From an uncultured bacterium (GTDB taxonomy: Bacteria; Bacillota_I; Bacilli_A; RF39; UBA660): a DNA stretch of 64,000 nt. Location: the NCBI GenBank assembly GCA_945935525.1, contig CAMERI010000005.1:33649-97648 (forward strand), written 5' to 3'. The notes beneath the pieces are model-generated. The model made no database searches, had not been told where the DNA came from, and saw nothing but the letters and a program-made list of their open reading frames with translations. The position numbers were made by a program, and so were the translations under genes. Within the stretch, counting starts at the first letter, position 1; the number at the start of each line of letters is the position of its first letter. This document shows positions 6,919-40,719 of this stretch, piece by piece.

Positions 6919-7028
6919 TTGCTACCTCTTTGATTATTTATACTAACAAAAAGTATTTATAATTTCAATAATACGTTTTAAATTTTATGATATTTTGTTA
7001 TAATTTAGATAATAATGGTGGTGAAGTT

Positions 7029-8126
7029 ATGTATGTTTTAGGTATTTGTGATGCAGGGGAGATACTAGAGACTTTTAGTATTGTTAATACTATTGTTTTA
7101 ATTATTAAGATAGTTGTACCAATAATTTTATTAGTTTCAGGTATGATTACTCTTATAAAAGCAATTAAGGATAAAGATGAGAATTTACTTTCAACGGCTA
7201 AGAAGTCTTTAATTACTAAGTGTATTGCTGCTATATTTATATTTTTTGTACCTACTTTTGTGAATTTTCTTGTTAAGGCAGGAAGTACAGAAGAAAATAA
7301 TTATATTGATTGTTTAAATAATGCTACTTCAGAAAATATAAGTAAGGCTTATTTAACTGAGGCTGAGACTTTACTTGCTAGGGCAGATGAGAATAAGGAT
7401 TTAGATGATTATTATGCTGCTAGGGTTGCTGCTAGTAAGATTAAAGATAAAGAATTAAGAAAGAAATACATGGAAAAGTTAGATGCTATGTATGAAATTA
7501 TAAAGAAAGAAATGGAAGAAGCTGAGAAGAACACTAATCCTGGTGGTGGAAACAATGGTGGAGGTAATAACACTGGTAGTAGTTTTCCATATTATGCTCA
7601 ATGTGATAGTAAGTGGGGTAATAAAAGTTATAATGGAACTAACTTATGTCATGCAGGATGTGGATATACATCACTTGCTATGGTATTAAGTGGACTTAAA
7701 AATGATAGTAGTATAACACCTTATACAGTTCATGAATATGTTTATGGACAAGGTATTTCAGTAAATCCAGGTGGAGGAGCAATAACAGATGCAGCACTTG
7801 TTAGTCCAAAAGTTGCTTCTAAGTATGGAGTAACTATACAAACTTTGTTTGGTAGAAATTATAATGAAGACTCTGCTACTCATCAAAAAGAGGCATCTCT
7901 TATAACAAATGCACTTGATCAAGGAAAACTAGTTGTGCTTTTAATACCAGGACACTATATAGCACTAGGTGGTAATGGTACTAATGTAGTTGTACATGAC
8001 CCAGCTAACTCAAGTAATAATGGTACTTATACTATAGAACAAGTTTATAATAAGTTTAAAAATTATAGTAATAGATGTAGTAGTGGTGGAACATGTGGAT
8101 TCATTTATGCTGTTGCTTATTCTTAA
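7029..8126 (+). CDS. two-TM N-terminal module fused to a papain-like cysteine peptidase (Peptidase_C39_2/YvpB-like), putative cell-wall hydrolase
   Basis: The N-module ICDAGEILETFSIVNTIVLIIKIVVPIILLVSGMITLIKAIK...CIAAIFIFFVPTFVNFLV is paralogous to the one at 21225. It has a GGGNNGGGNN linker. The C-terminus reads FPYYAQCDSKWGN...CHAGCGYTSLAMVLSGL...GHYIALGG...VVVHDP. Start chosen at 7029 (GGTGGTGAAG RBS). Confidence 0.6.
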   Translation: MYVLGICDAGEILETFSIVNTIVLIIKIVVPIILLVSGMITLIKAIKDKDENLLSTAKKSLITKCIAAIFIFFVPTFVNFLVKAGSTEENNYIDCLNNATSENISKAYLTEAETLLARADENKDLDDYYAARVAASKIKDKELRKKYMEKLDAMYEIIKKEMEEAEKNTNPGGGNNGGGNNTGSSFPYYAQCDSKWGNKSYNGTNLCHAGCGYTSLAMVLSGLKNDSSITPYTVHEYVYGQGISVNPGGGAITDAALVSPKVASKYGVTIQTLFGRNYNEDSATHQKEASLITNALDQGKLVVLLIPGHYIALGGNGTNVVVHDPANSSNNGTYTIEQVYNKFKNYSNRCSSGGTCGFIYAVAYS

Positions 8127-8224
8127 TACATTAAATTGAAGTTACTTAAAAAGTAGCTTCTTTTTTTATATAAAATAAATGCTAAATAAATTTTTGATTG
8201 AGTCACGTACGAATATCTTTTTGC

Positions 8225-8253
8225 TTGACCGGGGAGGGGGTACATATTATAAT
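8225..8253 (+). promoter_or_regulatory. sigma-A-type promoter for the 8269 gene
   Basis: TTGACC (8225-8230), a 17 nt spacer that is unusually G-rich (GGGGAGGGGG), TATAAT (8248-8253). Confidence 0.5.
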
Positions 8254-8268
8254 AAAATAGGTGATAAT

Positions 8269-9633
8269 ATGAAGGATAAAAGAATAATATTTGGAATAAC
8301 TTTAGCATTTATATTCCTAGCTAGTGTAGGATTTTCATATGCATATTTTAGCAATTCAATAGTTCAAAATGAAGTAAAAGATCAAGTAGTAGAAACTGGT
8401 ACATTACAACTTACATATACCGATGGACCAGAGATAAATATACAAAATATGAAACCAGGAAATACAATAACTAAAACAATAACTGTTAAAAATACTGGTT
8501 CCTTAGAAGCAAAATATAATATCATATGGCAAGAGCTAACAAATGAGATTACTAATGATGAAATGCTAATTGAAGGAACTTGTACTAGAATAAATGGCAC
8601 AACTGAAGAAGTAGATGGAACTTGTGAAAATATAGTAAGTACTCTAATTAATAGTCTAAAGATTAAAAGAAGTATTTCTATTGAACCAAATATAATACAT
8701 AAATATGATTTAACTATTACTTTTAAAGATACAGATGCTGATCAAAATTATAATCAAGGAAAGAAATTTGGTGGAGTCTTAGGAGTGGAGAATGCTCCTG
8801 AAGTTGTTAATTGCACTTTTGATGGAGAAGTAACGCAAGGTGTTGAGTATGTAAATGGAATATATACGTATAGATATATGCAGGAAAAAAGTGATGCTAA
8901 TACATCAACACTTACTGTTAATTGGAAAAACATGGATGATCTTGGTTGGGGAGTTGCCTTAACAAATCCATTATCTACTGAAGACGTTAGTACTAAAGAT
9001 GTATGTACATATATTAATGATGTACCTGTTATATACATGGGAGGAATGTTTGCATTAAGTCAAGCTAGTAATATAGATTTATCTAGATTGAATACTTCTA
9101 ATGTTATAAGTATGTCTGGTATGTTTGGCTATTCTCAGGCAAGTACTTTAGATTTAAGTAATCTTGATACTTCAAATGTGACTGATATGAGTGGTTTATT
9201 TTATCATTCAAATGCTACTAGTATTAACTTAGAAGGACTAGACACCTCAAAAGTAATACAAATGTGGAGTATGTTTATGAATAGTAAAGTTGCAAATATA
9301 GATTTAAGTAGATTTAATACAAGTAAAGTGACAAGTATGGAAAATATGTTTAGAGATACTTTGTTCACTACACTTAATTTAAGTAGTTTTGATACAAGCA
9401 AAGTAACTGATATGAGTTCGATGTTTAGCAGTTGCAAAAATTTAACGACTATTTATGCAAGCAATAAGTTTATTACTGATAATGTTACTAATTCAACATC
9501 TATGTTTTCGGGTGATAATAAACTAATTGGTGGTGCTAGTACTGTATATGATGCAAATCATATTGATAAAACATATGCTAGGATAGATGGAGGAACTAGT
9601 AGTCCTGGATACTTTACTTTGAAAACTAACTAA
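8269..9633 (+). CDS. secreted surface protein: TasA/camelysin-like N-module (SipW-type signal peptide) fused to BspA-like/DUF285 leucine-rich repeats
   Basis: The signal ends GFSYAYFSN. GTLQLTY...NMKPGNTITKTITVKNTGSLEAKY parallels B. subtilis TasA (AAFND...GTLDLS...NLKPGDKLTKDFQFENNGSLAI). The C-terminus carries about 6 repeats of the type DLSxLDTSNVTDMSGMF. Start at 8269 (AGGTGA RBS), not the 8179 ORF start. Confidence 0.7.
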   Translation: MKDKRIIFGITLAFIFLASVGFSYAYFSNSIVQNEVKDQVVETGTLQLTYTDGPEINIQNMKPGNTITKTITVKNTGSLEAKYNIIWQELTNEITNDEMLIEGTCTRINGTTEEVDGTCENIVSTLINSLKIKRSISIEPNIIHKYDLTITFKDTDADQNYNQGKKFGGVLGVENAPEVVNCTFDGEVTQGVEYVNGIYTYRYMQEKSDANTSTLTVNWKNMDDLGWGVALTNPLSTEDVSTKDVCTYINDVPVIYMGGMFALSQASNIDLSRLNTSNVISMSGMFGYSQASTLDLSNLDTSNVTDMSGLFYHSNATSINLEGLDTSKVIQMWSMFMNSKVANIDLSRFNTSKVTSMENMFRDTLFTTLNLSSFDTSKVTDMSSMFSSCKNLTTIYASNKFITDNVTNSTSMFSGDNKLIGGASTVYDANHIDKTYARIDGGTSSPGYFTLKTN

Positions 9634-9739: not shown

Positions 9740-9997
9740 ATGGAAGAGAAGATTTATGATGCTGTTAAGGAACCACTTGAAAAAGAAAATATTAAATTAG
9801 TAGGTGTTCACTTTGGAGAAGAAGATGGTGAAAATACATTATTTGTAACTATTGAAAACTTTAATGGTGAACCAGTAGACACAGATTTATGTGTTAAAGC
9901 TACAAAAATAGTTGATCCAATTATTGATAGTCTAGACTTAGATTTAGAGAATTATGTACTAGATGTCGGAAGCAAAGGAGAAGAAGGAAATGAGTAA
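9740..9997 (+). CDS. rimP: short RimP-like ribosome maturation factor (N-terminal domain only)
   Basis: Positioned immediately upstream of nusA. NYVLDVGSKGEE resembles the RimP Y.LEVSSPG motif. At 85 aa it is well short of the usual 150 aa or so. Confidence 0.55.
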   Translation: MEEKIYDAVKEPLEKENIKLVGVHFGEEDGENTLFVTIENFNGEPVDTDLCVKATKIVDPIIDSLDLDLENYVLDVGSKGEEGNE

Positions 9998-11132
9998 AAA
10001 GTTAAAAGAAGAAGATGCAGCAGTAGCAAGCGCTAAAGAATTTAAAAAAGCATTAGAATTCATAGTAAAAGAAAAAGGTATAGATGAAGATGTAGTTATT
10101 GAAGCTATGCAAACTGCTTTAAGTACTGCATATAAGAAAAATGAAAAAGCTGATTATAATAGTCGTGTATTAATAGATAGAAATACTGGAGAAATTAAAG
10201 TATTTAAAGTTACTACTATAGTAGATGATTACAAAGATGATGATGATGATATAGACCCAGAAACTGGAGAAGTTAAAGTAAGTCATGATTACTTAAATGA
10301 AATGACTATTAGCGAAGCTAAAGAAATAAATAGTGACTATCAAGTAGGCGATGAAATACTAGAAGAAGTTACTCCTAAAAACTTTGGTAGAGTAGCTATT
10401 TCAGTTGCTAAACAAGTAGTACTTCAAAAGATTCGTGAAGCTGAACGTGAAAAAGTTATGGCAGATTTTGCTGATAAGGAAGATGAATTAATGGTAGGAT
10501 TCCTTGCAATGGAAGATGCTAGAAACTATTACGTAGATTTAGGAAAAGCACGTGGAATACTTCCAAAGAGTGAATTAATTCCAGGTGAAAAGTTAACTAT
10601 GGGAGACTCTATAAAAGTATATATTACTAAAATAGAAAGTACACCTAAAGGACCACTTATTTTAACATCAAGAAAGAATTATGGATTTGTTAAAAGATTA
10701 TTTGAACATGAAATTCCTGAATTTAGTGATGGAACATTAGAACTTCGTGGAGTTGCTCGTGAAGCAGGTGTAAGAAGTAAAGTAGCTGTTGCTTCAACTA
10801 ATCCAAAAGTAGATCCAATTGGAAGTTGTATTGGTGAAAAAGGAAGAAGAATTGCTAATATAATTAATGAACTTGGTGGAGAAAAAGTAGATTTAATAGC
10901 ATATTCTGATAATATGGAAGAATTTATTGCTAATGCATTAAGTCCTGCTAAAAATTTAAATGTTAGTATTACTGATGAAAAGAAGAAAGAAGCATTAGTA
11001 ATAGCTGATGATGAAAATTTAAGTTTAGCAATTGGTAAGAAAGGAATTAATATTAAATTAGCTAGTAGACTTACTAAATATACAATTAATATTAAGACTT
11101 TAGCAGATATAAATGCTGAAATAAATAAATAA
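9990..11132 (+). CDS. nusA: transcription termination/antitermination factor NusA
   Basis: S1 and KH domain motifs (GRVAISVAKQVVLQKIREAERE, DPIGSCIGEKGRRI, AIGKKGINIKLASRLT). Start at 9990 follows AAAGGAGAAGAAGGAA; 9963 is an alternative start. Confidence 0.95.
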   Translation: MSKKLKEEDAAVASAKEFKKALEFIVKEKGIDEDVVIEAMQTALSTAYKKNEKADYNSRVLIDRNTGEIKVFKVTTIVDDYKDDDDDIDPETGEVKVSHDYLNEMTISEAKEINSDYQVGDEILEEVTPKNFGRVAISVAKQVVLQKIREAEREKVMADFADKEDELMVGFLAMEDARNYYVDLGKARGILPKSELIPGEKLTMGDSIKVYITKIESTPKGPLILTSRKNYGFVKRLFEHEIPEFSDGTLELRGVAREAGVRSKVAVASTNPKVDPIGSCIGEKGRRIANIINELGGEKVDLIAYSDNMEEFIANALSPAKNLNVSITDEKKKEALVIADDENLSLAIGKKGINIKLASRLTKYTINIKTLADINAEINK

Positions 11133-14247: not shown

Positions 14248-14331
14248 TTTACTATAAATAGTAAATATGGTATATTATTGTTAGTGAAATGCACCCCCTG
14301 AAGAGATACCGAAAGGTATCTCATTTTGTTT
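14248..14331 (+). ncRNA. possible very short transcript: promoter plus terminator hairpin
   Basis: TTTACT, 17 nt spacer, TGG-TATATT (14271-14276), then GAGATACC-GAAA-GGTATCTC-ATTTTGTTT (14303-14331). No ORF. Confidence 0.25.
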
Positions 14332-14366
14332 ATTTAAGGGCATTTTACTTATTTTTGGTAATACGC

Positions 14367-14386
14367 TACCCATCAAATACCCATCA
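14367..14386. repeat. left-end repeat, 2 x TACCCATCA (candidate att/arm sites)
   Basis: TACCCATCAAATACCCATCA sits immediately beyond the integrase stop codon. The 12-mer TACCCATCAAAT recurs at 20136-20147. Confidence 0.5.
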
Positions 14387-14388
14387 TT

Positions 14389-15597
14389 TTATGATGATTC
14401 ATCATTATTTTGATTATAATTATGTTCTAGATTATCAAAGAATTTTGGAACATTAGCCATCTCCTTTTTAAATAAATGTGTATATGTTTCTAATGTTTCT
14501 GTTGTCTCTGAATGACCTAGATAATTTGAAATAGCAGTTATTGGTGCTGCATTTGATATTAGAGCAGAAGCACAAGAATGTCTAAAGTCATGTATCCTAA
14601 TATGCTTAACTCCTGCTAGTTTTTGATATTTGTCTCTTCGACTATATATCTGATGATAGGAAATAGGTGTATCATCTCCAAAAACAAACCATGTATTTTT
14701 AAATTTACTAAAGAACTGATTGTTCTTTTTTAATTGCTCTAATTCCTTCATTAATACTGATGGAATAGGAATAGTTCTATTTGATGATTCTGTTTTAGGG
14801 CTTGAGATGTACCATTCACTATTTGCATTATTTGTAGATGGATTTAATACTTGTTGTGCAACTGTTAAAGTGCTGTTTTTAAAATCAATATGTTTCCATT
14901 GGAGTCCTCTTGCTTCAGATCTTCTTAGTCCACAATAATATAATATTTGAAATAAACATCTATCTCTTAAATATTCTATAACAGATAAGAATTTATAAAA
15001 TTCATCAGGTTCATAAAATTCCATTTCTTTTTTTATAGCACCTGGTGTTTTAAATGGCTCTAACTTGTTATAAAATTTTCTTAAGTTAAAATCCCATTGT
15101 TTTTCTGCAAAATTTATAACTTGTTTAATAAACTTTTGTATATCATTCTTATATCTATCACAAAGATTAGTTTTATTCATTTCTTTTCTCCATTTTTGAT
15201 ATAAATCCCAATTTAAATTGACTAATTCAACATTATCAAATAATCCCATATAAGCGATTCTATCTCTATATGTTTTAAGAGTAGAATCTTTTATTTTATC
15301 TTTTTGATATTCATAATATATTGTATAAGCCTCTTTAAATGTCATATGAGGATTAACATCTATATCTTTATATTTCTTTAAATATTCTTCCTCAGCCTGT
15401 TCAGCTTCTTTTTTTGTATAGTAAGTTGGAGACTGATATTGATGTCTTTTTCCATCTAATCCTTTGCTATATGCTACGAATGCCCATGATCTACCATCTT
15501 TAGTTACTTTATTTCCTTTTAATTGTCTTACAGACATAAATTTCTTTTTACCTCCTTTGTTTATATCTGCAAAAACATCGTGACTATATTTTATCAT
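14389..15597 (-). CDS. tyrosine site-specific recombinase (phage-type integrase)
   Basis: GLRRSEARGL (catalytic Arg), IRIHDFRHSCASALI (H-x-x-R), LGHSETTETLETYTHL (His and Tyr nucleophile). Confidence 0.9.
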   Translation of the reverse strand: MIKYSHDVFADINKGGKKKFMSVRQLKGNKVTKDGRSWAFVAYSKGLDGKRHQYQSPTYYTKKEAEQAEEEYLKKYKDIDVNPHMTFKEAYTIYYEYQKDKIKDSTLKTYRDRIAYMGLFDNVELVNLNWDLYQKWRKEMNKTNLCDRYKNDIQKFIKQVINFAEKQWDFNLRKFYNKLEPFKTPGAIKKEMEFYEPDEFYKFLSVIEYLRDRCLFQILYYCGLRRSEARGLQWKHIDFKNSTLTVAQQVLNPSTNNANSEWYISSPKTESSNRTIPIPSVLMKELEQLKKNNQFFSKFKNTWFVFGDDTPISYHQIYSRRDKYQKLAGVKHIRIHDFRHSCASALISNAAPITAISNYLGHSETTETLETYTHLFKKEMANVPKFFDNLEHNYNQNNDESS

Positions 15598-15605
15598 TAA
15601 TATAG

Positions 15606-17045
15606 TTATAATTCATAGTCATCGTGTGATTTTTGCTTGTTTTGTTCTTTATGACTACTAATGGTATTGCAAATAGATTCAAAAAATTCTATTGATTCTT
15701 TTTCTTCAATATGATTTTTTTTGACTAATTCTTCTGGCAGATTAACAAGTTTTTTAATAGCACGAAAAGCTGCATTTAAAGCATGAACAAATCTATTGAT
15801 TTTATCATTTAAAAAATCCACTACATTATTTAAATAGTGAATTTCTTGCTTTTGATCTTTAATTGTTTTTTCATGTTTATTAATTATTATATCTTTCTCT
15901 TTAATTGTATTATAAGCTTTTTGCAATTCTTTACCAGATTTTAAACCATTAACTTGATCATTTAATTTTTTTATTTCAATATCTTGCTTTCTAATAGTGT
16001 TCTTAGAAGATAGATTTTCTTTATTTACTTCTTTAGTATAACTAATAAGTTTCTCTATATCTTTATCCTTATATCTTTTAAAAACGTCCTTAGAAGGCGA
16101 TAATACTTCTTCTTGATTAAGATTTAGTATTTCTTCATTTGTTTTTAAATTAGCATTATTTATGCTTTCATAATGCTTAATTTCTCGTTGTAAGTTTTTA
16201 ATTTCTTTTTTAGTTTCTTTTAATTTATGTTCAGCTTTAGTTTGATGTTCTACATTAGCACCAACATTACCTCTATATAAATTAAAACCTTTTGAGGTAA
16301 TATATTCATTATATTTATCTTGAACTCTAGCATAGGATGATTTACCACCTAAATCTTTCCAGAATTGATCAAGATTTAGGAATTTGCCGGTTTCGGTTTT
16401 ATATATAGCTTTACCATTTTCATCTTTAGCTATGATAGGCACCATCTTTTTATTTCCATCTTTACCAGTAATCTCTTTTTTTAATATATTACCGTATTTA
16501 TCAGTTTCAAATACTTTCCTTTGAACTGAGTTTACTACTGGAGTGTAATAAAAATGCATATGTGGAGTATTTTCATCAAAATGAATTCCAGAATAAACAA
16601 CATTTTCTTTACCAACTAGATTACATAAGAATTCATGTGAGTATCTAAAATATTCTAAAACTTTTTCTGGAATATCATATTCAGAATTTATATTAACTCT
16701 TTCAATAGGTTCACCAGCATGTTCACCATATTGATGTACTTCTTCAGTAGGTACAAATTGCATACCTAATGATTTAAAAAATTCTTGTCCACTAGTTACA
16801 ACAACTCCACCAATTAAATTGATATTCTTTTTATTTTCTCCATATTGTACTTCATTAGATTTAAGAGTAGAGTAGACCTTACTCATTAAAGTTTGATTAT
16901 TTAAAGATACAAATTCTATATTATATTTAGTTCTTTCTAAATCATAATTACCTGTACCTTTTCTATCTTTAAGTTCTACACCAAGTCCTCCTAAATCCGA
17001 TGCTTTATATTTTTCAAATCTCATTACTTGATTTCCATCGAACAT
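15606..17045 (-). CDS. MobV-family (Mob_Pre) mobilization relaxase
   Basis: The N-terminus MRFEKYKASDLGGL and the motif GIHFDENTPHMHFYYTPVV (HxDExxPHxH) are MobV signatures. The C-terminus is a long coiled coil. Confidence 0.85.
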   Translation of the reverse strand: MFDGNQVMRFEKYKASDLGGLGVELKDRKGTGNYDLERTKYNIEFVSLNNQTLMSKVYSTLKSNEVQYGENKKNINLIGGVVVTSGQEFFKSLGMQFVPTEEVHQYGEHAGEPIERVNINSEYDIPEKVLEYFRYSHEFLCNLVGKENVVYSGIHFDENTPHMHFYYTPVVNSVQRKVFETDKYGNILKKEITGKDGNKKMVPIIAKDENGKAIYKTETGKFLNLDQFWKDLGGKSSYARVQDKYNEYITSKGFNLYRGNVGANVEHQTKAEHKLKETKKEIKNLQREIKHYESINNANLKTNEEILNLNQEEVLSPSKDVFKRYKDKDIEKLISYTKEVNKENLSSKNTIRKQDIEIKKLNDQVNGLKSGKELQKAYNTIKEKDIIINKHEKTIKDQKQEIHYLNNVVDFLNDKINRFVHALNAAFRAIKKLVNLPEELVKKNHIEEKESIEFFESICNTISSHKEQNKQKSHDDYEL

Positions 17046-17094
17046 TATTTACCTCCTTGATGTATTGAAAAAAATATTTTTTAGTTTATATAAG

Positions 17095-17125
17095 TTGACA
17101 AAAGTATAATTTTAGAGTTATACTT
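17095..17125 (+). promoter_or_regulatory. promoter/operator region of the XRE-ImmA module
   Basis: TTGACA (17095-17100) is followed by the perfect 8 bp inverted repeat AAGTATAA-N8-TTATACTT (17102-17125), which overlaps the -10 region. Confidence 0.4.
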
Positions 17126-17175
17126 ATGTCAAGTAAGAGAGATAAAAGTATCTTACTAAGAAAGGGAGCACAAAT

Positions 17176-17502
17176 ATGGAAGGGAAATTTGTAGAAAGAT
17201 TAAAAGAACTTATTGCGAGAGAAGATATCAAACAAAAAGATCTTGCTGAAGACGTAGGTATTACTGAAGCTGCATTATCAAGATATATGAAAGGTGATAG
17301 AACTCCACATGGTGAAACATTATGTAATCTTGCTACTGCTCTACATACTACAACAGATTACTTATTAGGTAGGGAAGATAAAGAAGATTTTAATAAGGAA
17401 ATCAGTTTTAATGAAATGCAAGGCTTACTTGCAAGAAGTTCAAAGAATTATTCTAGTGATCAAAATGATGAATTAATGCGAATAATTTTAAAAAACAAAT
17501 AA
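17176..17502 (+). CDS. XRE-family helix-turn-helix transcriptional regulator
   Basis: LKELIAREDIKQKDLAEDVGITEAALSRYMKGDRTP is a classic Cro/CI-type HTH. Confidence 0.85.
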   Translation: MEGKFVERLKELIAREDIKQKDLAEDVGITEAALSRYMKGDRTPHGETLCNLATALHTTTDYLLGREDKEDFNKEISFNEMQGLLARSSKNYSSDQNDELMRIILKNK

Positions 17503-17517
17503 TCAGGAGGTGAATTT

Positions 17518-18105
17518 ATGGCTAGAGTTAGGCTTAGAGATGAAAGGTATGAATACATAAAGAAAATAGTGGTTAAAACATTAAAAGAATGTAATATAAG
17601 GGAAATTCCAATTGATCCATTTTTAATATGCAAAGTAAGAGGATATAAATTAATAAAATATACAAAAAAATATACTAAAGAAGAAATGGAAGTAGTTTGT
17701 AGGAGATATCCTAATGGATTTAATTATGTTTTAAATGGTGAAAGAATAATTGAATATAATGACACTTTAGCACCAGAAAGAATTAGAACTACTATATTTC
17801 ACGAAATAGGACACATAGAGTTAAAACACACTTGTGAATGCTCACTAGCTGAAGCAGAAGCTGAATGGTTTGCTGTTTATATGATAGCACCACCACCATT
17901 AGTTAATTTATTTAATCTTGAAGATTCAATGGATTTAGCAATTAAGTTTGATACTTCTATGGAATGTGGTTATTACTCTATGGTTAGATATATAAAGTGG
18001 AAGAAATATACCTGGATTCTTAAAGACTATGAAAGAGAACTAGTCAAACAATTTACTGCTACTAATGAATATTTAATTAAGAAAGAAGAGGTGATGCAGA
18101 ATTGA
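17518..18105 (+). CDS. ImmA/IrrE-family metallopeptidase (anti-repressor protease)
   Basis: HEIGHIELKH (HExxH), and its position directly downstream of the XRE regulator. Confidence 0.8.
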   Translation: MARVRLRDERYEYIKKIVVKTLKECNIREIPIDPFLICKVRGYKLIKYTKKYTKEEMEVVCRRYPNGFNYVLNGERIIEYNDTLAPERIRTTIFHEIGHIELKHTCECSLAEAEAEWFAVYMIAPPPLVNLFNLEDSMDLAIKFDTSMECGYYSMVRYIKWKKYTWILKDYERELVKQFTATNEYLIKKEEVMQN

Positions 18106-18260
18106 TTGCAAATAAAAAGTACCTTGTTACTTGCGATAACAAAGTACTAAGAACCAATGATCAAATAGATCTGGTTACAAGTCTATTATATCATGAAGGT
18201 TCAAAATTTCAAAAATTATTTAAGAATATTATGTCAATTAATATTAGAAAGGAATGGTGA
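18102..18260 (+). CDS. possible 52-aa ORF with a TTG start
   Basis: A GAGGTGA RBS lies 7 nt upstream of the TTG. It fills the gap between immA and the cargo operon. No recognisable family. Confidence 0.25.
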   Translation: MIANKKYLVTCDNKVLRTNDQIDLVTSLLYHEGSKFQKLFKNIMSINIRKEW

Positions 18261-18305
18261 AAATCGTGAATAATAGACTTAAATCACCAATCAACAGGTG
18301 CTCAT

Positions 18306-19034
18306 ATGAGGAAAGTTGATGATATAGAAAGAAAAACTCGACTAGAATTTCTTAAAATACTTAATACTACTACACCATCTAAATCTGGTAGGATGCCAAA
18401 TCTAAAATATGATTTAGAAGTATATCCAGATTATTTGGCTTTATATAATGAGCCAGGTAAGTATACTAAAACATTATTAACAGCACCATGTTTCTATTTA
18501 TGGGATGAAAAATTTGATGATTATGATGGATTGCTAAATGCAATTAAATATAATATCGAGGATAAATTAGATTTTTATAAAAAGAGATTCCACGGTGTAA
18601 AAATGATAATATCACCTGATTACAGTCTAGTAGGAAATATTTATCCTACTATTAATGAAGGAAGAATATTTGATTCTAGACTAGTATCTCTTTGGTTTGC
18701 TAACGAACTAGGTATTGTATCAATACCTAATATGACTTATACAGATGAAAGTTCATTTCCTATGATGATTGATGGCATAGAGGAATGTAAAGTTGTATGT
18801 TTTAGTGCTATGTCTTGCCTAACTGATAAAGAAGATAGAAATAAACTAGAAAAAGCTATTAAATATACTGTTGATCATTTAAAACTAAATGCTATAGTAG
18901 TGTATACTTCAACTCCAAATGATGATAAAATTAATGATATATTTAAATATGCTATCGAAAAAAATGTTAAAATTATAATTCCTGATAATACTATTAGAGA
19001 ATCTAATAGGAGGAAGTTAAATGGGAAGAGTTAG
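18306..19034 (+). CDS. hypothetical protein, possibly DUF4417 family
   Basis: The length and the motifs FYLWDEKFD, ISPDYSL and VSIPNMTY recall DUF4417, but this is from memory only. Confidence 0.4.
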   Translation: MRKVDDIERKTRLEFLKILNTTTPSKSGRMPNLKYDLEVYPDYLALYNEPGKYTKTLLTAPCFYLWDEKFDDYDGLLNAIKYNIEDKLDFYKKRFHGVKMIISPDYSLVGNIYPTINEGRIFDSRLVSLWFANELGIVSIPNMTYTDESSFPMMIDGIEECKVVCFSAMSCLTDKEDRNKLEKAIKYTVDHLKLNAIVVYTSTPNDDKINDIFKYAIEKNVKIIIPDNTIRESNRRKLNGKS

Positions 19035-19497
19035 TGGGATAGGTGGAAGTACTGGAGTTGGTACTTCTGGACAATTATCATTACAACAACAAACTTACTC
19101 ATCACTTGTTCAGGGATTAGAAAATGTACTAAATAGTATTAAAACATATAATATTAATAAAAATGCAAAGGCAATGGCAAGTGAATATCCTACAACTAAA
19201 GGCGGGTACTTTGGTAAAAAAGGAACATCTAATAAAAAAAGAGTTATTTATACTGATAATCCAATATCAGAAGCTAATAATTTCTTTAATAAGATATCTA
19301 AAGGGTATTATTCTAAAACAATACATGGTAATGCTACAATAGTTCGTTTACCAGATGAGACTGTTATAACTTATAGAGTTATTACTAAGACTAGTAAAAG
19401 TGGTAATTCACCTGCAGTTGATATAAATATTAATAGTTCAAAAGCAAATCCTAAGATTAAAGGACAGAGAATACATTTTGAAAAGGAGAAGAAATAA
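19021..19497 (+). CDS. hypothetical small basic protein with a Gly-rich N-terminus (candidate toxin-like module)
   Basis: Overlaps the upstream stop. N-terminus GIGGSTGVGTSGQ. The C-terminal segment ITYRVITKTSKSGNSPAVDININ...RIHFEKE recalls the C-terminal modules of polymorphic toxins. Weak. Confidence 0.3.
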   Translation: MGRVSGIGGSTGVGTSGQLSLQQQTYSSLVQGLENVLNSIKTYNINKNAKAMASEYPTTKGGYFGKKGTSNKKRVIYTDNPISEANNFFNKISKGYYSKTIHGNATIVRLPDETVITYRVITKTSKSGNSPAVDININSSKANPKIKGQRIHFEKEKK

Positions 19498-19498
19498 A

Positions 19499-20035
19499 AT
19501 GATTAAACAAGAATTTAAAATAAAAGAAATAGAAATCTTAAAATCTTTGATTGGAAAAAAAATCATAAATATTAATTATACATATCCAGTATATGGAAAT
19601 ATTAAGATTGATTTTGATTTATATTCTGTTGTCATATCTAATTTAATGCATGAAGGAAGCTTAGCTGGAGATGATGATGACATTACGTACTTCACATTAG
19701 AGAAAATATCCAAAGAAGATAAATTTGAATTTTTCTTAAATGATGTTAAAACTGATAGTATTGAAGTTAATGAAACTATAAAGTCAATAGAGATTGTTAA
19801 TGATTTAATTAATTATAATGACGAGTATGAAATATCTTATGATGTAGCTATAGTCTTTATTACTGATAAACATAAGTATATTATTTCTAGAGATTGGTTC
19901 TATATGGAAACAATGCAAATAAATGTTGATAAAGATATAGATGATATTTTAGATAAAAATACTATTATTGAACAATATAGAGGAGAATCTACTGAAGTAA
20001 AAGTAGAAATAGAAAGAACTAGTAGAGAAATATAA
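19499..20035 (+). CDS. hypothetical acidic protein (candidate immunity-like partner)
   Basis: AAAAGGAGAAG RBS, with the start 2 nt after the upstream stop. Asp/Glu-rich. No recognisable family. Confidence 0.3.
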   Translation: MIKQEFKIKEIEILKSLIGKKIININYTYPVYGNIKIDFDLYSVVISNLMHEGSLAGDDDDITYFTLEKISKEDKFEFFLNDVKTDSIEVNETIKSIEIVNDLINYNDEYEISYDVAIVFITDKHKYIISRDWFYMETMQINVDKDIDDILDKNTIIEQYRGESTEVKVEIERTSREI

Positions 20036-20040
20036 AAAAA

Positions 20041-20072
20041 GTGATCTATTCATTTCGAATAGACCACTTTTT
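20041..20072 (+). terminator. rho-independent terminator of the IME cargo operon
   Basis: GTGATCTATTC-ATTTC-GAATAGACCAC followed by TTTTT. Confidence 0.7.
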
Positions 20073-20103
20073 AAGTTAAAATTGAGCCCGCAAATGATGG
20101 GTG

Positions 20104-20147
20104 TACCCATACTTCTACCCATCATACCCAACGTTTACCCATCAAAT
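20104..20147. repeat. right-end repeat cluster, 4 x TACCCA(T/A) units (candidate att/arm sites)
   Basis: GTACCCATAC, CTACCCATCAT, ATACCCAACG and TTACCCATCAAAT, preceded by the inverted copy ATGATGGGT (20094-20102). Confidence 0.5.
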
Positions 20148-20298
20148 TTTAGGATTTTTTTGCAAATCTTTTTAAACTCAAAATCTTAATTATTCCTTGA
20201 TATTACGATGCTTTTGCAGAATGTGTTGTAAAGAAAACCTTACAATTAACTCGCCCCCTGAGGGCGCCATCACTTAAAAGTGTAAGGCCTAACGAGAG

Positions 20299-20669: not shown

Positions 20670-21209
20670 ATGAAAATGGGAAAAGAAGAAAAAATAATAT
20701 TTGGTTTTATTTTATTATTTATATTCATTGGTACTGTTGGATTTAGTTATGGATATTTTCGTGCTGAGTTTGCATACAGTTCTGATGAAGTAGAGGTAAC
20801 AACTGGAACTTTAGAACTTAAATATAGTGATAATAGTCCATTAATATATAAGAATGGTTTTAAACCAGGTGAAACTATTACTAAAACTGTTACTGTAGAA
20901 AATACAGGTACGTTAGATGCAGTGTATGATTTAATATGGAAAGAATATAAAAATGAAATAATTAATGATGAGTTAACTATAAGTGCTGTATGTGATAGTA
21001 TGAATTCTAATGATATAATGAGTGGTAGTTGTACTAATGTAGAAGAAAAATCTGTTAGTGGGGATGCAATTAAAACCAAAGTTAGTATAAGCCCAGGCAT
21101 GAAACATAGATATAGTATAGTAATAACATTTAAGAATCTAGATGAAAGTCAAAATTATAATCAAGGTAAGACATTTAGTGGTATTATCAATGTTAAAGAT
21201 AGTAATTGA
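20670..21209 (+). CDS. stand-alone TasA/camelysin-like module with SipW-type signal peptide
   Basis: GFSYGYFRAE...GTLELKYSD...FKPGETITKTVTVENTGTLDAVYDLIW...QNYNQGKTFSG is collinear with the N-modules at 8269, 35107 and 45098. Confidence 0.7.
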   Translation: MKMGKEEKIIFGFILLFIFIGTVGFSYGYFRAEFAYSSDEVEVTTGTLELKYSDNSPLIYKNGFKPGETITKTVTVENTGTLDAVYDLIWKEYKNEIINDELTISAVCDSMNSNDIMSGSCTNVEEKSVSGDAIKTKVSISPGMKHRYSIVITFKNLDESQNYNQGKTFSGIINVKDSN

Positions 21210-21224: not shown

Positions 21225-22463
21225 ATGATTTTACAAATATGTGATAATCCAACTGTTTTGAGTGTAATGCGTATTGTTAATATTGCAATTTTAATTATTA
21301 AGATTGTTGTTCCAATATTATTAATTTTAACGGGTATGATAACACTTTTGAAAACTATTAAAGTAGTTGAAGAAGATTTACTTGCGAAAGCTAAAAAACA
21401 ACTTGTTAATAATTGTATTGCTGCAGTAGTTGTATTTTTTATACCTACTTTTGTTAGTGTATTAGTAAAAGTTTCTTTAACAAATGGTGAATATAAAGAT
21501 TGCTTAAGTAATACTTCAAGTGATGTAATTAATCAAAAGTATTATGACATAGCAGTTGATTCCATTAGTAAAGCTGAATCATCTTCTAAATATAATGATT
21601 ATTATGATGCTGTAAATAAAATTAATGAAATAAAAGATATTGATACAAAAAAATCTCTTAAAAAAAGACTTGATAATGTAAAAACTATTATTGATAAAAA
21701 AATAGAAGAAAATAATAAAAAAGAAAATATTAATAGTGGAACTAATAGTAATAGCGGGAGTAATAGCTCTAACACAACTATTTCTGATGCTAGTAATCCT
21801 GGTACATTCACGCCTGATAGTGGAAAAACTTCCAATTGTAATAAGAACGGAAAATATCAATTATGTTCTGCTAAAAAAGGAATCTTTGGATCATTTGCTT
21901 ACTATGATAAAGCAGCAGTAAATGATACATCTAATCGTAATAGTATTGAGATGGACCCATCATGGAAAAAAACAAATCTAGTTAATGTATCAACTACATG
22001 TTCTAATGGAACCAAATATAATTGGACTGTTCATAGACTTGCTTCTTCAACATGGAAAAAAGTTCAGGAAAAATTTTGTCAAATAATTACAGTTGGAATA
22101 GATGGAATAAAATATGAACCTAATCAAATAGTGGTTAGTGGACCTATATCTATACGATATATAAGTAATACCAAAACAATTAGTACTCATGCTTATGGAA
22201 TTGCAATAGATATAAATCCTAGCGAAAGCTATACTATTAATGGAAAAAAATATTCAACTCCTTATGGTAGAAGTTTAGAAAAATACAACAATTTTATAAA
22301 TGCTATAGGTGGCGAAAGCGATCCTAGAAATGTTAATTATGTTTTATGGAAAAAAGTTTTTGAACCACTTGGATTCATATGGGGCGGTAATTGGGGAAGA
22401 AATGGTAAAGGTACAAAAATAGATGGAATGCACTTTGAAATTGATTGGAGGAATGCTAGGTAA
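21225..22463 (+). CDS. two-TM N-terminal module fused to an M15-family (VanY / L-Ala-D-Glu peptidase-like) peptidoglycan metallopeptidase
   Basis: The N-module ICDNPTVLSVMRIVNIAILIIKIVVPILLILTGMITLLKTIK...CIAAVVVFFIPTFVSVLV is paralogous to the one at 7029. It has a Ser/Asn linker. The C-terminus reads HAYGIAIDINP...GFIWGGNW...DGMHFE. Confidence 0.7.
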   Translation: MILQICDNPTVLSVMRIVNIAILIIKIVVPILLILTGMITLLKTIKVVEEDLLAKAKKQLVNNCIAAVVVFFIPTFVSVLVKVSLTNGEYKDCLSNTSSDVINQKYYDIAVDSISKAESSSKYNDYYDAVNKINEIKDIDTKKSLKKRLDNVKTIIDKKIEENNKKENINSGTNSNSGSNSSNTTISDASNPGTFTPDSGKTSNCNKNGKYQLCSAKKGIFGSFAYYDKAAVNDTSNRNSIEMDPSWKKTNLVNVSTTCSNGTKYNWTVHRLASSTWKKVQEKFCQIITVGIDGIKYEPNQIVVSGPISIRYISNTKTISTHAYGIAIDINPSESYTINGKKYSTPYGRSLEKYNNFINAIGGESDPRNVNYVLWKKVFEPLGFIWGGNWGRNGKGTKIDGMHFEIDWRNAR

Positions 22464-24219: not shown

Positions 24220-26737
24220 TAAAAAATATAATCATAAAGAAGTAGAAAATGGAAAATATGAAATGTGGCTTAAAAGTCATTGCTTTGATGCAGGAGATAA
24301 GAGTAAAGATGCGTTTACTATAGTTATACCTCCACCTAATGTTACAGGTAATTTACATTTAGGTCATGCACTTAATGGTAGTATTCAAGATGTTATCATT
24401 AGATATAAAAAGATGAAAGGTTTTGATACTTTATGGCTTCCAGGAATGGATCATGCAGCTATTGCAACTGAAGCTAAAGTAGTTAATAGACTTAAAGAAA
24501 ATGGAATTAATAAATATGAGCTTGGTCGTGAAGGATTCTTAAAAGAATGTTGGAAATGGACTGATGAACATAGAAGTAATATTCATAAACAATGGGAAAC
24601 TTTAGGGCTTAGTGTGGATTATAGACGTGAGAGATTTACATTAGATGAAGGACTTAATGATGCGGTTAATGAAGTATTTATAAGACTATATAATGAAGGA
24701 TTAATCTATCGTGGTGAAAAGATTATTAACTGGGATCCAGTTGCTAAGACAGCTCTTTCAAATGAAGAAGTTATTTATAAAGATGATCCAGGAGCTTTCT
24801 ATCATATTAAATATTTTATTGAAGGAAGTGATAAGTATTTAGATGTAGCTACTACAAGACCTGAAACTTTATTTGGTGATACTGCTGTTGCTGTTAATCC
24901 AGAAGACGAGAGATATAAAGATTTAATTGGTAAGAATGTAGTACTTCCAATTGTTAATAAGTTAATACCTATTATAGGAGATGAACATGCTGATCCTGAG
25001 TTTGGTACTGGATGTGTTAAAATTACACCAGCACATGATCCTAATGACTTTGAAGTAGGCGAAAGACATAATTTAGAGAGAATTCTAATTATGAATGAAG
25101 ACGCTACAATGAATGAGAAAACTGGCAAATATAATGGAATGTCTCGTGAAAAGTGTAGAGAAGAATTACTTAAAGATTTAGAGAGTCAAGATTTATTAAT
25201 TAGCGTTGAAAAGATGACACATAGTGTAGGTCATTCTGAGAGAACTGATGCTGTAGTAGAGCCATATTTATCTAAACAATGGTTTGTTGATATGAGTGGT
25301 ATGAGTAAAGACTTATTAGATGCTCAAAAAGGTGGAGACAATAAAATTAACTTTATACCTAAGAGATTTGAAAAAGTATTAAATCACTGGATGGTAGACT
25401 GTCATGACTGGTGTATTAGTCGTCAATTATGGTGGGGACACAGAATTCCTGCTTGGTATAAAGGGGAAGACATTAAAGTACAAAAAGAATGTCCAGGTGA
25501 TGGATGGACTCAAGATGAAGACGTGTTAGATACTTGGTTTAGTAGTGCGTTATGGCCATTTAGTACTCTTGGTTGGCCAAATAAAACTGAAGACTTAGAA
25601 AGATATTTTCCAACTGATGTTCTTGTAACAGCATATGATATTATATTCTTCTGGGTTGCTCGTATGGCATTCTCATCACTTAAACAAATGAATAGCCGTC
25701 CATTTAAAGATTGTATTATTCATGGGCTTATTCGTGATAAACAAGGAAGAAAGATGTCTAAATCATTAGGAAACGGAATAGATCCAATGGATATGATAGA
25801 TGAATATGGATGTGATGCGTTAAGATTCTATCTAACAACAACATCTGCGATGGGAATGGATATACGTTTTGATACTGATAAAGTAGCTTCTACTTGGAAC
25901 TTTATTAATAAATTATGGAATGCATCAAGATTTGTACTTATGAAACTTGAAGGTTTCAAGAAGGAAGATTATTCACTTAAAAATTTAAATAAAGCAGATA
26001 AATGGATACTTACTAAGCTTAATGAAACAATTAAAAAAGTAACTAAATCTATGGATAAATATGAACTAAATAATGCAGGAAGTGAGTTATATTCATTTAT
26101 ATGGGATGATTTTTGTGATAAATATATAGAAATGTCTAAATTTAGTGAAAGCAATGAAACTAAGAGTACACTTTTATATACAATTACAGCTATAGTTAAA
26201 ATGATGCATCCATTTATGCCATTTGTTACTGAAGAAATGTATAGTAACTTTGGAATAAAAGATAGTGATATACTTCTTATGACTGAATATCCTACATATG
26301 ATAAAAAACTAGTATTCAAAAGTGAAACTAAAGAAATAGATGAAATGCTTGAATATGTAACATTATTTAGAAATAAAAAGACTGAAAGTAAAATAACAAG
26401 TGAATTTGAAGTAATAGATTATAATAATAATGAACTATTAAATAAGATGCTTAAATTAACTGATAAAATAGTTGGTGAAAGTAAATATAAAGATAAACTT
26501 ACTATTGAGTTATATAATTATAAATTTGATCTATTCTTTGATAACTCTAAAAATAATCTTGAAGAAGAGTTAAGACGTAAAGAAGAAATAGAGAAGTTAG
26601 AAGCATCTATTAGTCGTCGTAAGAAATTATTATCAAATGAAAATTATGTAAATAAAGCACCTGAAGCTATAGTTAATAAAGAAAGAGAAGACTTAGAAAA
26701 GGAAGAAAAGAGACTAGAAATTCTTAAAAAGAACTAG
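24212..26737 (+). CDS. valS: valine--tRNA ligase
   Basis: [14 protein letters not shown] (HIGH), KMSKSLGN (KMSKS), and the C-terminal coiled coil. Start at 24212 ([12 protein letters not shown]); the GTG at 24203 is an alternative. Confidence 0.97.
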
Positions 26738-27020
26738 TCTTTTTATTTTATTTGTGTTAATCTATAAATATAAGGTAGGTGAGACATGAAAAGAAGTCTT
26801 GGTTTTACATTAGTAGAGTTACTTGCTGTTATAGCAATACTTGGTATAATAACTCTTATTGCAGTACCAAATGCTATTAAATTATATAATGAAGCAATAT
26901 TAAAAGAAATGGTTGTTCAAGAAAGTAATATTAAGAATGCTGCTAATATATATTTAGAAGATTATTGTAATTCTAAATTAGATGATAGGCTTATATGTCC
27001 ATCTAGTTATGAAGAAGTTA
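26733..27020. repeat. tandem duplication, copy 1: terminator/promoter/RBS plus pilin 5' region
   Basis: ACTAGTCTTTTTATTTTATTTGTGTTAATCTATAAATATAA is identical to 28648 onward. A 74 nt block in the pilin N-terminus is also identical, and identity is then about 80% out to roughly +235. Confidence 0.8.
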
Positions 27021-28639
27021 ATAATAAAGATGAAAAATATGTTTGTTTAAGTGACTTGCAAGAAGCAAATGATTCATACATAGGAAGTGTTAAATATAAG
27101 AAAGATTCTTGTAAAGGTATTATTGTATATAAAAAAGATAAAGATACTGATTTATATACAGATGCTAAAACATATTTATATTGTGGTAATAGTGATACTG
27201 GAGAATATAATTATATAACTGATGAAACTATTAATCCTGCTGATTATTCAAGATGTAATATTAAATTAAATAATGAAATGTATTATTTTAATGTTATGGA
27301 AGAAAAATTATCTGAGATTCATTTAATACTTCAAAGAGAAAATGAGTTAGTAGTACAAATGAGTAATGAAACAAATACTTCTAATGATAGAGAAAAAATA
27401 AAAAAAGAAATACAAGAACTTAATAAAGAAATAAATATTCTATATGATTTTAAATATTTAGATGCGATGATATTACATAAAGATAATATTTTAACTGGTA
27501 AATACGTAGTTAAAGTTGTTAGTAGTAGTGGTTTAAAACTTGATAGTTTAACATTTAATGATTATGTAAAAGATGAAGATACTGTTAAAAAAGCAATTAA
27601 AGATGTAAGTTATTTTAGAAGTTATATAGGAGCAGAAGAAAATGCTTTAGAATATAGATTAGAATTTAATAAATGTGAAAATGATAGTTGTAAACTTGAT
27701 ATAGTTAAAAATATGGTTATGAGAATATATGAGTTATCTTATAATGCTACATATAATAATACTTATATTGATGATGATTTGGTGAATATAAATCTTGAAA
27801 TACAAAAGTTATTTGATAACTTAGATGTGTTTTCTAAAAAAACGGATAATTCTTCAATAAGTAAAAGTATTGTATTTCCTAATGGAAAAGATGTATTAAA
27901 TAAAAATAATAGTAAGATAATATATGAAGAAGCTAGTTCATATTTAAAAAATATTAAGAGTGATTTAAATACATCGGCTGCTTGGGAAGACGAAGTATCT
28001 ATGTATGAAACGGCTAAGGGTGCTTTGAGTAATATCATTAGTATAACTGATAGGCAAAGTGAATTAATTAATAATTGTATTAGTAATTCCTCAGTTAATG
28101 ATGAATTAAATGAACTATATAATGAAATAGAAAATATTAAAAATAATACTACTTTTAATACTAATAAAATATTAAGTGATAGTACTTATTATAAAGATTA
28201 TTTATTATATGATTTAAGTGATAATGATCTTAAAAATATAAGTTGTTCTAATAGTAAATCTTCTAGTGTGATAAGTAAGTATCAAAGAAAAATAAATTTA
28301 AATATTGTGAGTATAAATGCTAATATAGATAAAGCTAAAGTATTGATAGACTTTGTTAAATGTAATGATTCATCTTGTGTTTTAGATGTGGTTAAGGGTA
28401 TATTAAATACTATGATTGGTCTTAGTGACAAGGCTATGAGTGTAGGTGATATTTTGAGAGAAGAATATAATATAGAATACACTACATATTTTAAAGCTCT
28501 TAACCATATAGCGTTAATAAGCAAAAATGATAGTTATAGTACTAAGAGTCTTGGAATAGATAATACTAATATATTAACTCTTGAGAATGCTAAAAGTGCT
28601 AAAGAAGTGTTAAATAGTAAAATTTCTAATATAAAATAG
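26786..28639 (+). CDS. type IV prepilin-like protein fused to two flagellin D1-like modules
   Basis: Prepilin signal MKRSLG/FTLVELLAVIAILGIITLIAVPNA. Flagellin-like segments are HLILQRENELVVQMSN, AIKDVSYFRSYIGAEENALEYRLEFN and ETAKGALSNIISITDRQSELINN. Confidence 0.7.
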   Translation: MKRSLGFTLVELLAVIAILGIITLIAVPNAIKLYNEAILKEMVVQESNIKNAANIYLEDYCNSKLDDRLICPSSYEEVNNKDEKYVCLSDLQEANDSYIGSVKYKKDSCKGIIVYKKDKDTDLYTDAKTYLYCGNSDTGEYNYITDETINPADYSRCNIKLNNEMYYFNVMEEKLSEIHLILQRENELVVQMSNETNTSNDREKIKKEIQELNKEINILYDFKYLDAMILHKDNILTGKYVVKVVSSSGLKLDSLTFNDYVKDEDTVKKAIKDVSYFRSYIGAEENALEYRLEFNKCENDSCKLDIVKNMVMRIYELSYNATYNNTYIDDDLVNINLEIQKLFDNLDVFSKKTDNSSISKSIVFPNGKDVLNKNNSKIIYEEASSYLKNIKSDLNTSAAWEDEVSMYETAKGALSNIISITDRQSELINNCISNSSVNDELNELYNEIENIKNNTTFNTNKILSDSTYYKDYLLYDLSDNDLKNISCSNSKSSSVISKYQRKINLNIVSINANIDKAKVLIDFVKCNDSSCVLDVVKGILNTMIGLSDKAMSVGDILREEYNIEYTTYFKALNHIALISKNDSYSTKSLGIDNTNILTLENAKSAKEVLNSKISNIK

Positions 28640-28647
28640 ACTAGATT

Positions 28648-28935
28648 ACTAGTCTTTTTATTTTATTTGTGTTAATCTATAAATATAAAGTAGGTGAGAT
28701 ATGAAGAGGAACAGTGGTTTTACATTAGTAGAGTTACTTGCTGTTATAGCAATACTTGGTATAATAACTCTTATTGCAGTACCAAATGCAATTAGTTTAT
28801 ATAATGAAGGTGTAATTAAAAAAATGATAGTAGAAGAATCTAATATAAGAGATGCTGCTAATATGTATTTAGAAGATTATTGCTTATCTAAATTAGATGA
28901 TAGACTTGTATGTCCTTCTAGTTATGAAGATGGTA
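28648..28935. repeat. tandem duplication, copy 2
   Basis: See copy 1 at 26733. Confidence 0.8.
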
Positions 28936-29201: not shown

Positions 29202-29226
29202 AAACTATTTTAGTTTCTTTTTTCTT
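29200..29226 (+). terminator. rho-independent terminator after the pilin gene
   Basis: AGAAACTA-TTT-TAGTTTCT followed by TTTTTTC. Confidence 0.7.
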
Positions 29227-40669: not shown

Positions 40670-40719
40670 TAAGTTTTTTTGTTATAATTAACTTGATAAT
40701 AGAAAGTGTGGCGACAAGT

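Follow-up and report, generated by a model that had tools for sequence, protein, structure and literature searches.

A 64,000-nt stretch of DNA from an uncultured bacterium (GTDB lineage Bacteria; Bacillota_I; Bacilli_A; RF39; UBA660; GenBank assembly GCA_945935525.1, contig CAMERI010000005.1, positions 33,649 to 97,648), referred to here as the window, carries four loci whose products begin with the same secreted module, a small relative of the Bacillus subtilis biofilm fiber protein TasA (loci 1 to 4, Table 1). They are paralogues within a family of secreted proteins that is specific to a lineage of uncultured low-GC gut Bacilli and strongly expanded there. That these proteins belong to the TasA/camelysin superfamily and are built from modules can be read directly from the data, and we hold it with high confidence. 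With modest confidence, we favor the overall reading that they are fiber subunits processed by a SipW-type signal peptidase, assembled by donor-strand exchange and equipped with adhesive tips.

A TasA-like module with exchangeable tips

A preliminary description of this DNA, drawn from the letters alone, had listed four plus-strand copies of a collinear N-terminal module (N-module), which measures ~175 amino acids (aa). All four are present and the window holds exactly that number, as tblastn with loci 1 and 4 found no fifth; direct-repeat families D1, D2, D5 and D6 connect the same four places at 64-84% DNA identity. An alignment of the four N-modules (A1), with a mean column identity of 72%, contains every motif quoted at the time: GFSY(A/G)YF, TG(T/S)L.L.Y.D, KP(G/D).T.TKT...N.TG, W(Q/K)E..NEI.N(D/N)E, an invariant Cys pair and QNYNQGK.F.G. 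The mature N-module, which includes this Cys pair, is ~150 aa long.

The proposed kinship with TasA and camelysin is borne out by profile searches. Each N-module matches Pfam PF12389 (Peptidase_M73, TasA/camelysin) above the gathering score of 22.5 bits, with 47.1, 32.4, 29.9 and 37.1 bits for loci 1 to 4, locus 3 being scored as a repaired translation; the same profile is matched by 83 of 85 relatives (E <= 1e-4). When a profile of 82 relatives was compared with all Protein Data Bank sequences, TasA was the only match (8aur, 5of1/5of2; E 3e-5). The hidden Markov model (HMM) alignment places KD.VV.TGTL.L...KPG.T.TK...N.G.L against TasA residues 34-80 and so reproduces, for chains 8aur and 5of1, the parallels to GTLDL, NLKPGDKLTK and NNGSL that had been pointed out earlier. 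AlphaFold (AF2) models were obtained for locus 2 (predicted local distance difference test, pLDDT, 84.8) and, built independently, for full-length locus 1 (pLDDT 84.4, exceeding 90 in the tip; residues 16-36 are disordered), and for both the best Foldseek match was the TasA fiber 8aur_A (E 6.2e-4 for locus 2 and 3.4e-4 for locus 1; probability 1.00). The Foldseek lists also hold other donor-strand filament subunits, namely AbpA (7ueg), CanA (9hdi/9h8b), the Sulfolobus thread (7pnb) and CfaB (4y2l).

A scan limited to one genome per species found 185 relatives, of which the best 80, representing 74 distinct loci, were kept. All 80 come from uncultured gut metagenome-assembled genomes (MAGs) labelled Clostridium sp. 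(including CAG:524), Bacilli, Mollicutes or Mycoplasmatota and, judged on these best 80 of 185, the family is confined to uncultured low-GC gut Bacilli. The closest genome, CAJJPX01, has at least 13 copies. One database member is already named "CalY family protein".

Profile searches also recovered the three architectures of the preliminary description: the module stands alone at locus 2, is followed by DUF285/PARCEL repeats at locus 1, and at loci 3 and 4 precedes a domain, described earlier by its ending WWL(R/C)S...ISPAFRIG, that proved to be DUF6273. The locus 1 tip scores 106.5 bits against DUF285 (PF03382; cut-off 25) and 97.4 bits against the PARCEL repeat TIGR02167 (cut-off 30) in five stretches, and its DNA holds 75-nt repeats at 9074-9414. 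Repaired loci 3 and 4 score 55.3 and 58.4 bits against DUF6273 (PF19789; cut-off 23.5). DUF6273 has been described as C-type-lectin-like; phages are reported to use it as a receptor-binding domain diversified by diversity-generating retroelements (DGRs), and a gut immunoglobulin A protease to carry it at the N-terminus (PMC10743442, PMC12402451). DGR-type hypervariation of the DUF6273 tips was considered and set aside, the window containing neither a template-like repeat nor a reverse transcriptase.

Only loci 1 and 2 are intact, a point that had been missed. Orthologues of locus 1 form twelve clusters of intact 454-aa proteins at 82-98% identity, and locus 2 is intact in several orthologue clusters. 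By three-frame translation, the reading frame of locus 3 is broken twice, by the loss of one nucleotide in codon 33 (35203-35204) and by the gain of one within an A7 run (35972-35978); the locus 3 linker is also ~42 aa shorter than that of locus 4. In locus 4 an Asp codon of the paralogues is replaced, in frame, by TAG (45539-45541). Sequencing or assembly error was rejected as the source of these defects because the same broken products recur in independent assemblies and other samples: the 254-aa middle fragment of locus 3 equals P0057 (107 member sequences, 35 contigs), the 147-aa product of locus 4 has six near-identical variants (P0022-P0030), and the locus 4 split is shared by an independent contig from another sample that is 99.6% identical (L003). 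Reassignment of TAG was likewise rejected, as TAG terminates 9 of 36 long open reading frames (ORFs) in the window and is thus a genuine stop. In this species loci 3 and 4 have thus decayed, which leaves loci 1 and 2 as the two expected to function. The locus 4 orthologue in a sister genome (L031) is intact and encodes 411 aa. In a related lineage, ~90% identical to locus 4, the relatives of 45098-45541 are truncated at a different point (P0077, P0081, P0082 and P0084; 122 aa, on up to 162 contigs), which indicates that the locus 4 gene has been truncated recurrently.

Tips have been exchanged between handles, as the preliminary description supposed. Among 85 members, profiles identified DUF6273 in 33 and DUF285 in 27, with CarboxypepD_reg, LRR_5 or DUF4886+GDSL in others; a local classification of 87 members gave 38 DUF6273, 27 DUF285, 14 without a tip and 8 others. 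In a neighbor-joining tree of N-modules, DUF285 and DUF6273 types are intermingled at many points, and the stand-alone type of locus 2 forms a single clade of syntenic orthologues from eight genomes. Counted among related genomes, seven carry a syntenic, tipless orthologue of locus 2. The clearest case of tip swapping, demonstrated in relatives, is a pair of positional orthologues at the locus 3 site, between a SIMPL gene and mutS (L044 and L030). Their first 18 residues are identical and residues 1-183 share 71% identity; past residue 183 the two are unrelated, one carrying DUF285 and the other DUF6273.

The same kind of exchange crosses between families. Homologues of the locus 1 tip, at 44-55% identity, have an N-terminus matching PF07963 instead of PF12389. 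One of these, P0174, is 49% identical to the locus 1 tip and has the N-terminus of a canonical type IV pilin (MNKKAFTLIELL...; MNKKAFTLIELLAVIAIL...), and its homology to locus 1 sets in precisely where the TasA-like module ends, at residue 176. That this tip sits on a proven filament-subunit handle argues, more strongly than any other indirect evidence, for the TasA-like module also being a handle for incorporation into filaments.

Export, likely processing and possible assembly

Read from the sequence, the N-terminus of these proteins has a basic n-region, a hydrophobic core ending in S-Y-A and no lipobox Cys, and a -3/-1 cleavage site of the ordinary type precedes Y-F-S-N. Y24 and F27, which flank the cleavage site, are more than 90% conserved among 85 family members. 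Such conservation, resembling that of A↓AFND in TasA, appears unusual for a generic signal peptide, and SYA↓YFSN can be likened to the WA↓AFND of TasA both by eye and in the HMM alignment. The donor strand of TasA consists of its first 11 mature residues, 28-38 (PMC9674648); in both monomer models the mature N-terminus is unstructured and of low confidence, and it aligns with the TasA segment that holds the donor strand.

Genes for a SipW-type peptidase are linked to paralogues in related genomes. In two genomes whose DNA is 85-95% identical to the window, a 184-aa SipW-type gene (L048:9335-9889 and L038:9343-9897) lies directly upstream of a paralogue that starts near 9950-10000. The two genes score 82-90 bits against TIGR02228 (archaeal/endoplasmic reticulum (ER)-type signal peptidase I; cut-off 51.85 bits), within a range of 82-100 bits for SipW-type genes of these relatives, and their best-named match is B. 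subtilis SipW. In a third genome, more distantly related (CP091739, L056), a SipW homologue of 43% identity lies 2.4 kb upstream of a paralogue. A strict search for the signal peptidase I (SPase I) motif found nothing, and a looser motif found the SipW genes of L038 and L048. The preliminary description had named the lack of any SipW-type peptidase, combined with a predicted standard SPase I or lipoprotein cleavage site, as grounds for giving up its reading; since such genes stand near paralogues in three relatives, this objection falls away. Processing by SipW, suggested by this linkage, is likely. The surrounding cluster in L048 (3607-17982; the layout is the same in L038) contains two SipW-type peptidases, two TasA-like-DUF285 genes and four unannotated proteins of 367, 388, 350 and 191 aa with signals ending in (S/T/A)YAW(F/M). 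McrB-like and DUF2357 genes are inserted in the middle of it.

Taken together, these data suggest the following model. The precursor comprises a Sec signal peptide with the conserved cleavage region G-F-S-Y-A↓Y-F-S-N and a TasA/CalY/BsaA beta-sandwich of ~150 aa presumably braced by the invariant Cys pair, followed either by nothing or by an exchangeable, putatively ligand-binding tip. After export by Sec, the protein would be cut behind SYA by a SipW-type (archaeal/ER-type) peptidase encoded elsewhere, beside another paralogue. The freed segment YFSN...KDQVVETGTL could then serve as a donor strand, filling out the beta-sandwich of the following subunit in the manner of TasA fibers. The stand-alone product of locus 2 may form the shaft, and the paralogues with fused tips (locus 1 and, before their decay, loci 3 and 4) may join the fiber and show their DUF285 or DUF6273 lectin-like tips, which would serve adhesion. 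For polymerization and tip display, which draw on homology and on analogy with pilins, we regard the chances as evenly balanced.

Several observations weigh against this model. The only NCBIfam models matched by the N-module are TasA and the SipW-dependent BsaA subfamily, both below threshold (19.5-26.9 bits against a cut-off of 450 for the TasA equivalog NF046066, and 22-26.5 against 60 for BsaA, TIGR04090), so the proteins are superfamily members and not orthologues of TasA or BsaA. The NCBIfam scan gave no match to the SipW-cognate signal model TIGR04088 at E <= 10. TasA is matched with modest TM-scores (0.35-0.44), and in Foldseek generic beta-sandwich domains (CBM3) come out almost as high; the fold evidence therefore backs the sequence evidence and cannot stand alone. 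As the preliminary description had remarked, the window has no S26/SipW gene: Pfam and NCBIfam profiles of essentially all ORFs, motif scans and tblastn with the sister-genome SipW were all empty, and a sipW gene in this exact genome would be expected by extension from its sister genomes. Finally, no TapA-like nucleator was identified, and bulky C-terminal tips on every subunit might hinder packing.

The main rival to the fiber model is a monomeric surface adhesin, in which the TasA-like sandwich is a stalk or spacer for DUF285 or DUF6273 and no fiber forms; the hydrophobic helix would either remain uncleaved as a membrane anchor or be cleaved and the protein released. We regard this as a genuine but minority possibility. 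A mere stalk makes little sense of a tipless stand-alone module conserved at a syntenic site in eight genomes, and the strong conservation of the cleavage site and mature N-terminus, the SipW gene adjoining paralogues and the identical tip type on genuine type IV pilins, which are polymerizing handles, all speak against it. On the other side, ~73 of 87 family members carry a large C-terminal domain, non-polymerizing sandwich modules such as CBM3 match the fold at similar scores, neither a nucleator nor an anchor protein was identified, and membrane attachment does occur in the superfamily, BsaA oligomers having been reported as membrane-anchored (PMC11580942).

The fiber model could also be extended into a broader proposal, which is speculative and rather improbable as a whole. 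Under it, adhesins would be displayed combinatorially and irrespective of filament type, with DUF285, DUF6273 and other tips shuffled by recombination at a precise module boundary onto two unrelated polymerizing handles, the miniature TasA-like donor-strand module and the type IV pilin. A dozen or more paralogues would co-assemble in heteropolymeric fibers whose adhesive repertoire is renewed by tip swapping and pseudogenization. The recurrent N-terminal fragments (147 aa; 122 aa on 162 contigs) might persist as nucleators or caps, an idea modelled on TapA, of which the N-terminus alone is needed.

A narrower alternative, and a fairly unlikely one, is ordinary Sec secretion, with the SipW-type (ER-type) enzyme acting as the general signal peptidase of a reduced-genome lineage and no dedicated pathway. 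It touches the processing step alone and is compatible with fiber formation. SYA↓Y does follow the usual -3/-1 rule, and a motif scan of ~1.33 Mb of related sequence, which sampled only a fraction of each genome, returned SipW-type genes and no P-type SPase I. A dedicated enzyme is suggested by the two SipW paralogues lying within a cluster enriched in (S/T)YA(Y/W)F signals, an arrangement like that of the dedicated tapA-sipW-tasA operon.

Antigenic variation is very unlikely. This explanation would treat the loci as silent and expressed cassettes in a contingency system that exchange by gene conversion, with the frameshifts, one of them in the A7 homopolymer of locus 3, as phase switches. The preliminary description had reported long nucleotide-identical stretches among the copies and thought gene conversion plausible. 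The first statement was too strong: pairwise DNA identity of the N-modules is 60-73%, and no identical run is longer than 26 nt, a length reached between loci 3 and 4 (P = 0.025 by permutation, uncorrected; only one of five pairs has P < 0.03). The 17-mer it quoted occurs unaltered in two copies, and a third differs from it at one position. Old mosaicism stands, as positions shared by just two of the three loci 1, 3 and 4 are clustered in blocks beyond shuffled controls (P = 0.0008), with loci 1 and 3 agreeing at the 5' end, 3 and 4 at ~70-220 nt, and 1 and 4 further on. This pattern fits ancient recombination among the paralogues, and rate heterogeneity could contribute. Recent conversion was rejected, since at this identity and with no run above 26 nt there is no sign of it. 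The many paralogues and the fast evolution of positional orthologues would suit a variation system; however, the frameshifted and TAG-bearing forms recur in P0057 (35 contigs), P0022-P0030 and L003, no intact alleles of the species were found, and slippage cannot reverse a TAG substitution. The idea that the module is a camelysin-type metalloprotease has only the Pfam family name Peptidase_M73 in its favor and can be practically dismissed: all four N-modules in A1 lack HExxH or any other zinc-binding motif, so the name "metallopeptidase" is not applicable, and the assignment of CalY as a protease is itself regarded as a probable misidentification (PMC11580942).

Genomic setting

The window has a G+C content of 26.7%, and the four loci are dispersed in it amid housekeeping genes (rimP-nusA-infB, valS, secDF, relA, dtd, mutS, frr, nusB and xseA). 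In sister genomes the positions of the loci are kept while their sequences evolve fast. Locus 1 is preceded by a TTGACC-17-TATAAT site (8225-8253) and a terminator-like hairpin (8138-8160), which suggests that it is its own transcription unit, though counts of consensus sites are not above those of shuffled controls.

Table 1. Coordinates in the window of the TasA-like loci, their parts and neighboring features.
Feature	Position (nt)	Strand	Residues (aa)	Description
Locus 1	8269-9633	+	454	Intact
Locus 1, signal peptide	8269-8343		1-25	Predicted cleavage SYA↓YF
Locus 1, TasA-like N-module	8344-8796		26-176	
Locus 1, tip	8797-9630		177-454	Small beta cap and DUF285/PARCEL repeats
Locus 2	20670-21209	+	179	Intact stand-alone TasA-like module; candidate major (shaft) subunit
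Locus 3	35107-36198	+		Pseudogene; TasA-like module and DUF6273
Locus 4	45098-46330	+		Pseudogene; TasA-like module, linker and DUF6273
Neighbor of locus 1	6987-8126	+		Two-transmembrane N-module (weak T4SS_pilin-like match) fused to Peptidase_C39_2-like domain
Neighbor of locus 2	21225-22463	+		Two-transmembrane N-module fused to Peptidase_M15_4 cell-wall peptidase domain; starts 16 nt after locus 2
Tyrosine integrase	14389-15597	-		Within 14301-20248
Mob_Pre relaxase	15606-17045	-		Within 14301-20248
Peptidase_M78	17518-18105			Within 14301-20248, which also encodes a helix-turn-helix regulator
DUF4417	18306-19034			Within 14301-20248

The genes flanking loci 1 and 2 form a second modular family, their two-transmembrane N-modules sharing 44% identity. 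The pairing of locus 2 with the M15 gene is kept at its 16-nt spacing in six genomes. By association, the product of the gene next to locus 1 is a possible cell-wall or processing partner of locus 1, and it is conceivable that these peptidase neighbors are linked to the passage of a fiber through the wall.

Just upstream of locus 2, the segment 14301-20248 looks like an integrative mobilizable element, and it is absent from sister genome L004. The same sister genome lacks the block 26771-29211, which holds two type IV pilin-like genes with an N_methyl motif (26786-28639 and 28701-29201). The first encodes 617 aa and includes a Flagellin_N-like stretch, and the 5' ends of the two genes with their upstream DNA (26733-27025 and 28648-28940) are 87% identical over 293 nt. 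Elsewhere in the window, a 628-aa ORF (55378-57264, minus strand) joins LytB/IspH to a polyprenyl synthetase domain in an apparent fusion within isoprenoid synthesis. Beside xseAB lies a SpoIVB-like Peptidase_S55 gene (48471-49448), which is of the sporulation type; MAGs of this lineage go variously by the labels Mollicutes, Mycoplasmatota or Bacilli. Three ORFs have no Pfam match at E <= 0.01, at 40693-42141 (482 aa) and 42346-44211 (621 aa), both just upstream of locus 4, and at 50755-51738 (327 aa).

Relation to known systems

In Bacillus and Clostridium, TasA-type fibers are known to be matrix scaffolds of the single-domain kind. The present family is a lineage-specific variant of this fiber family in which the handle is miniaturized, occurs in at least 13 copies in a small genome and carries exchangeable binding domains. 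Homologues of TasA and BsaA, their linkage to SipW and the occurrence of multiple paralogues are already known (PMC9674648, PMC9245690, PMC11580942). A literature search for TasA-like fusions to adhesin domains gave nothing relevant, and we did not find described a miniature TasA-like module as a handle for exchangeable DUF285/DUF6273 tips, its amplification in small genomes to a dozen or more copies, or the sharing of tips with type IV pilin handles. The DUF285 and DUF6273 domains gain a concrete structural context from this arrangement. If the model is true, it hints at how uncultured gut Bacilli with reduced genomes attach to the host or to other microbes and vary that attachment.

The closest comparison is with TasA of B. 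subtilis (5OF1, 8AUR) and CalY of B. cereus, which share PF12389, the beta-sandwich fold class and a collinear series of motifs in which A-F-N-D corresponds to Y-F-S-N, followed by GTLDL, KPGD.LTK and NNGSL; the linkage of a SipW-type gene to paralogues in relatives of the present genome is a further likeness. The module described here is smaller (~150 against 234 aa in the mature form), has an invariant Cys (disulfide) pair and is only ~14% identical. Unlike TasA and CalY, most members bear a C-terminal binding domain, and instead of one tapA-sipW-tasA operon there are at least 13 copies scattered amid housekeeping genes, with no TapA found. BsaA and BsaB of Clostridium perfringens (TIGR04090), SipW-dependent matrix proteins that use donor-strand exchange and an N-E-K isopeptide lock, are the best NCBIfam subfamily match after TasA. 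They too have multiple paralogues, with sipW clustered with several substrates, and heteropolymer formation has been suggested for them; they differ in lacking fused adhesin tips, and the present scores of 22-26 bits lie below their cut-off of 60.

At the level of fold alone, the module resembles the archaeal TasA-like filaments that appear in the Foldseek lists (AbpA bundling pili, 7UEG; CanA cannulae; Sulfolobus threads, 7PNB), whose subunits are of similar compact size (~150-180 aa) and polymerize by donor-strand complementation without a chaperone. The archaeal subunits use a generic signal peptidase and have no fused tips. Leucine-rich-repeat surface proteins of the BspA family with type IV pilin N-termini, found in gut Mollicutes/Tenericutes MAGs (P0174), have the same cap and DUF285 tip (49% identity along its full length) and share the module boundary of locus 1, with a type IV pilin (PF07963) in place of the TasA-like handle. 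The chaperone-usher adhesins FimH and PapG follow the same logic of a donor-strand pilin-type domain joined to a receptor-binding domain, although they are Gram-negative proteins of unrelated families, have another domain order (the FimH lectin is N-terminal) and need a chaperone and an usher. If the modules described here polymerize, they would be a Gram-positive counterpart of such tip-adhesin pili, built on a TasA scaffold.

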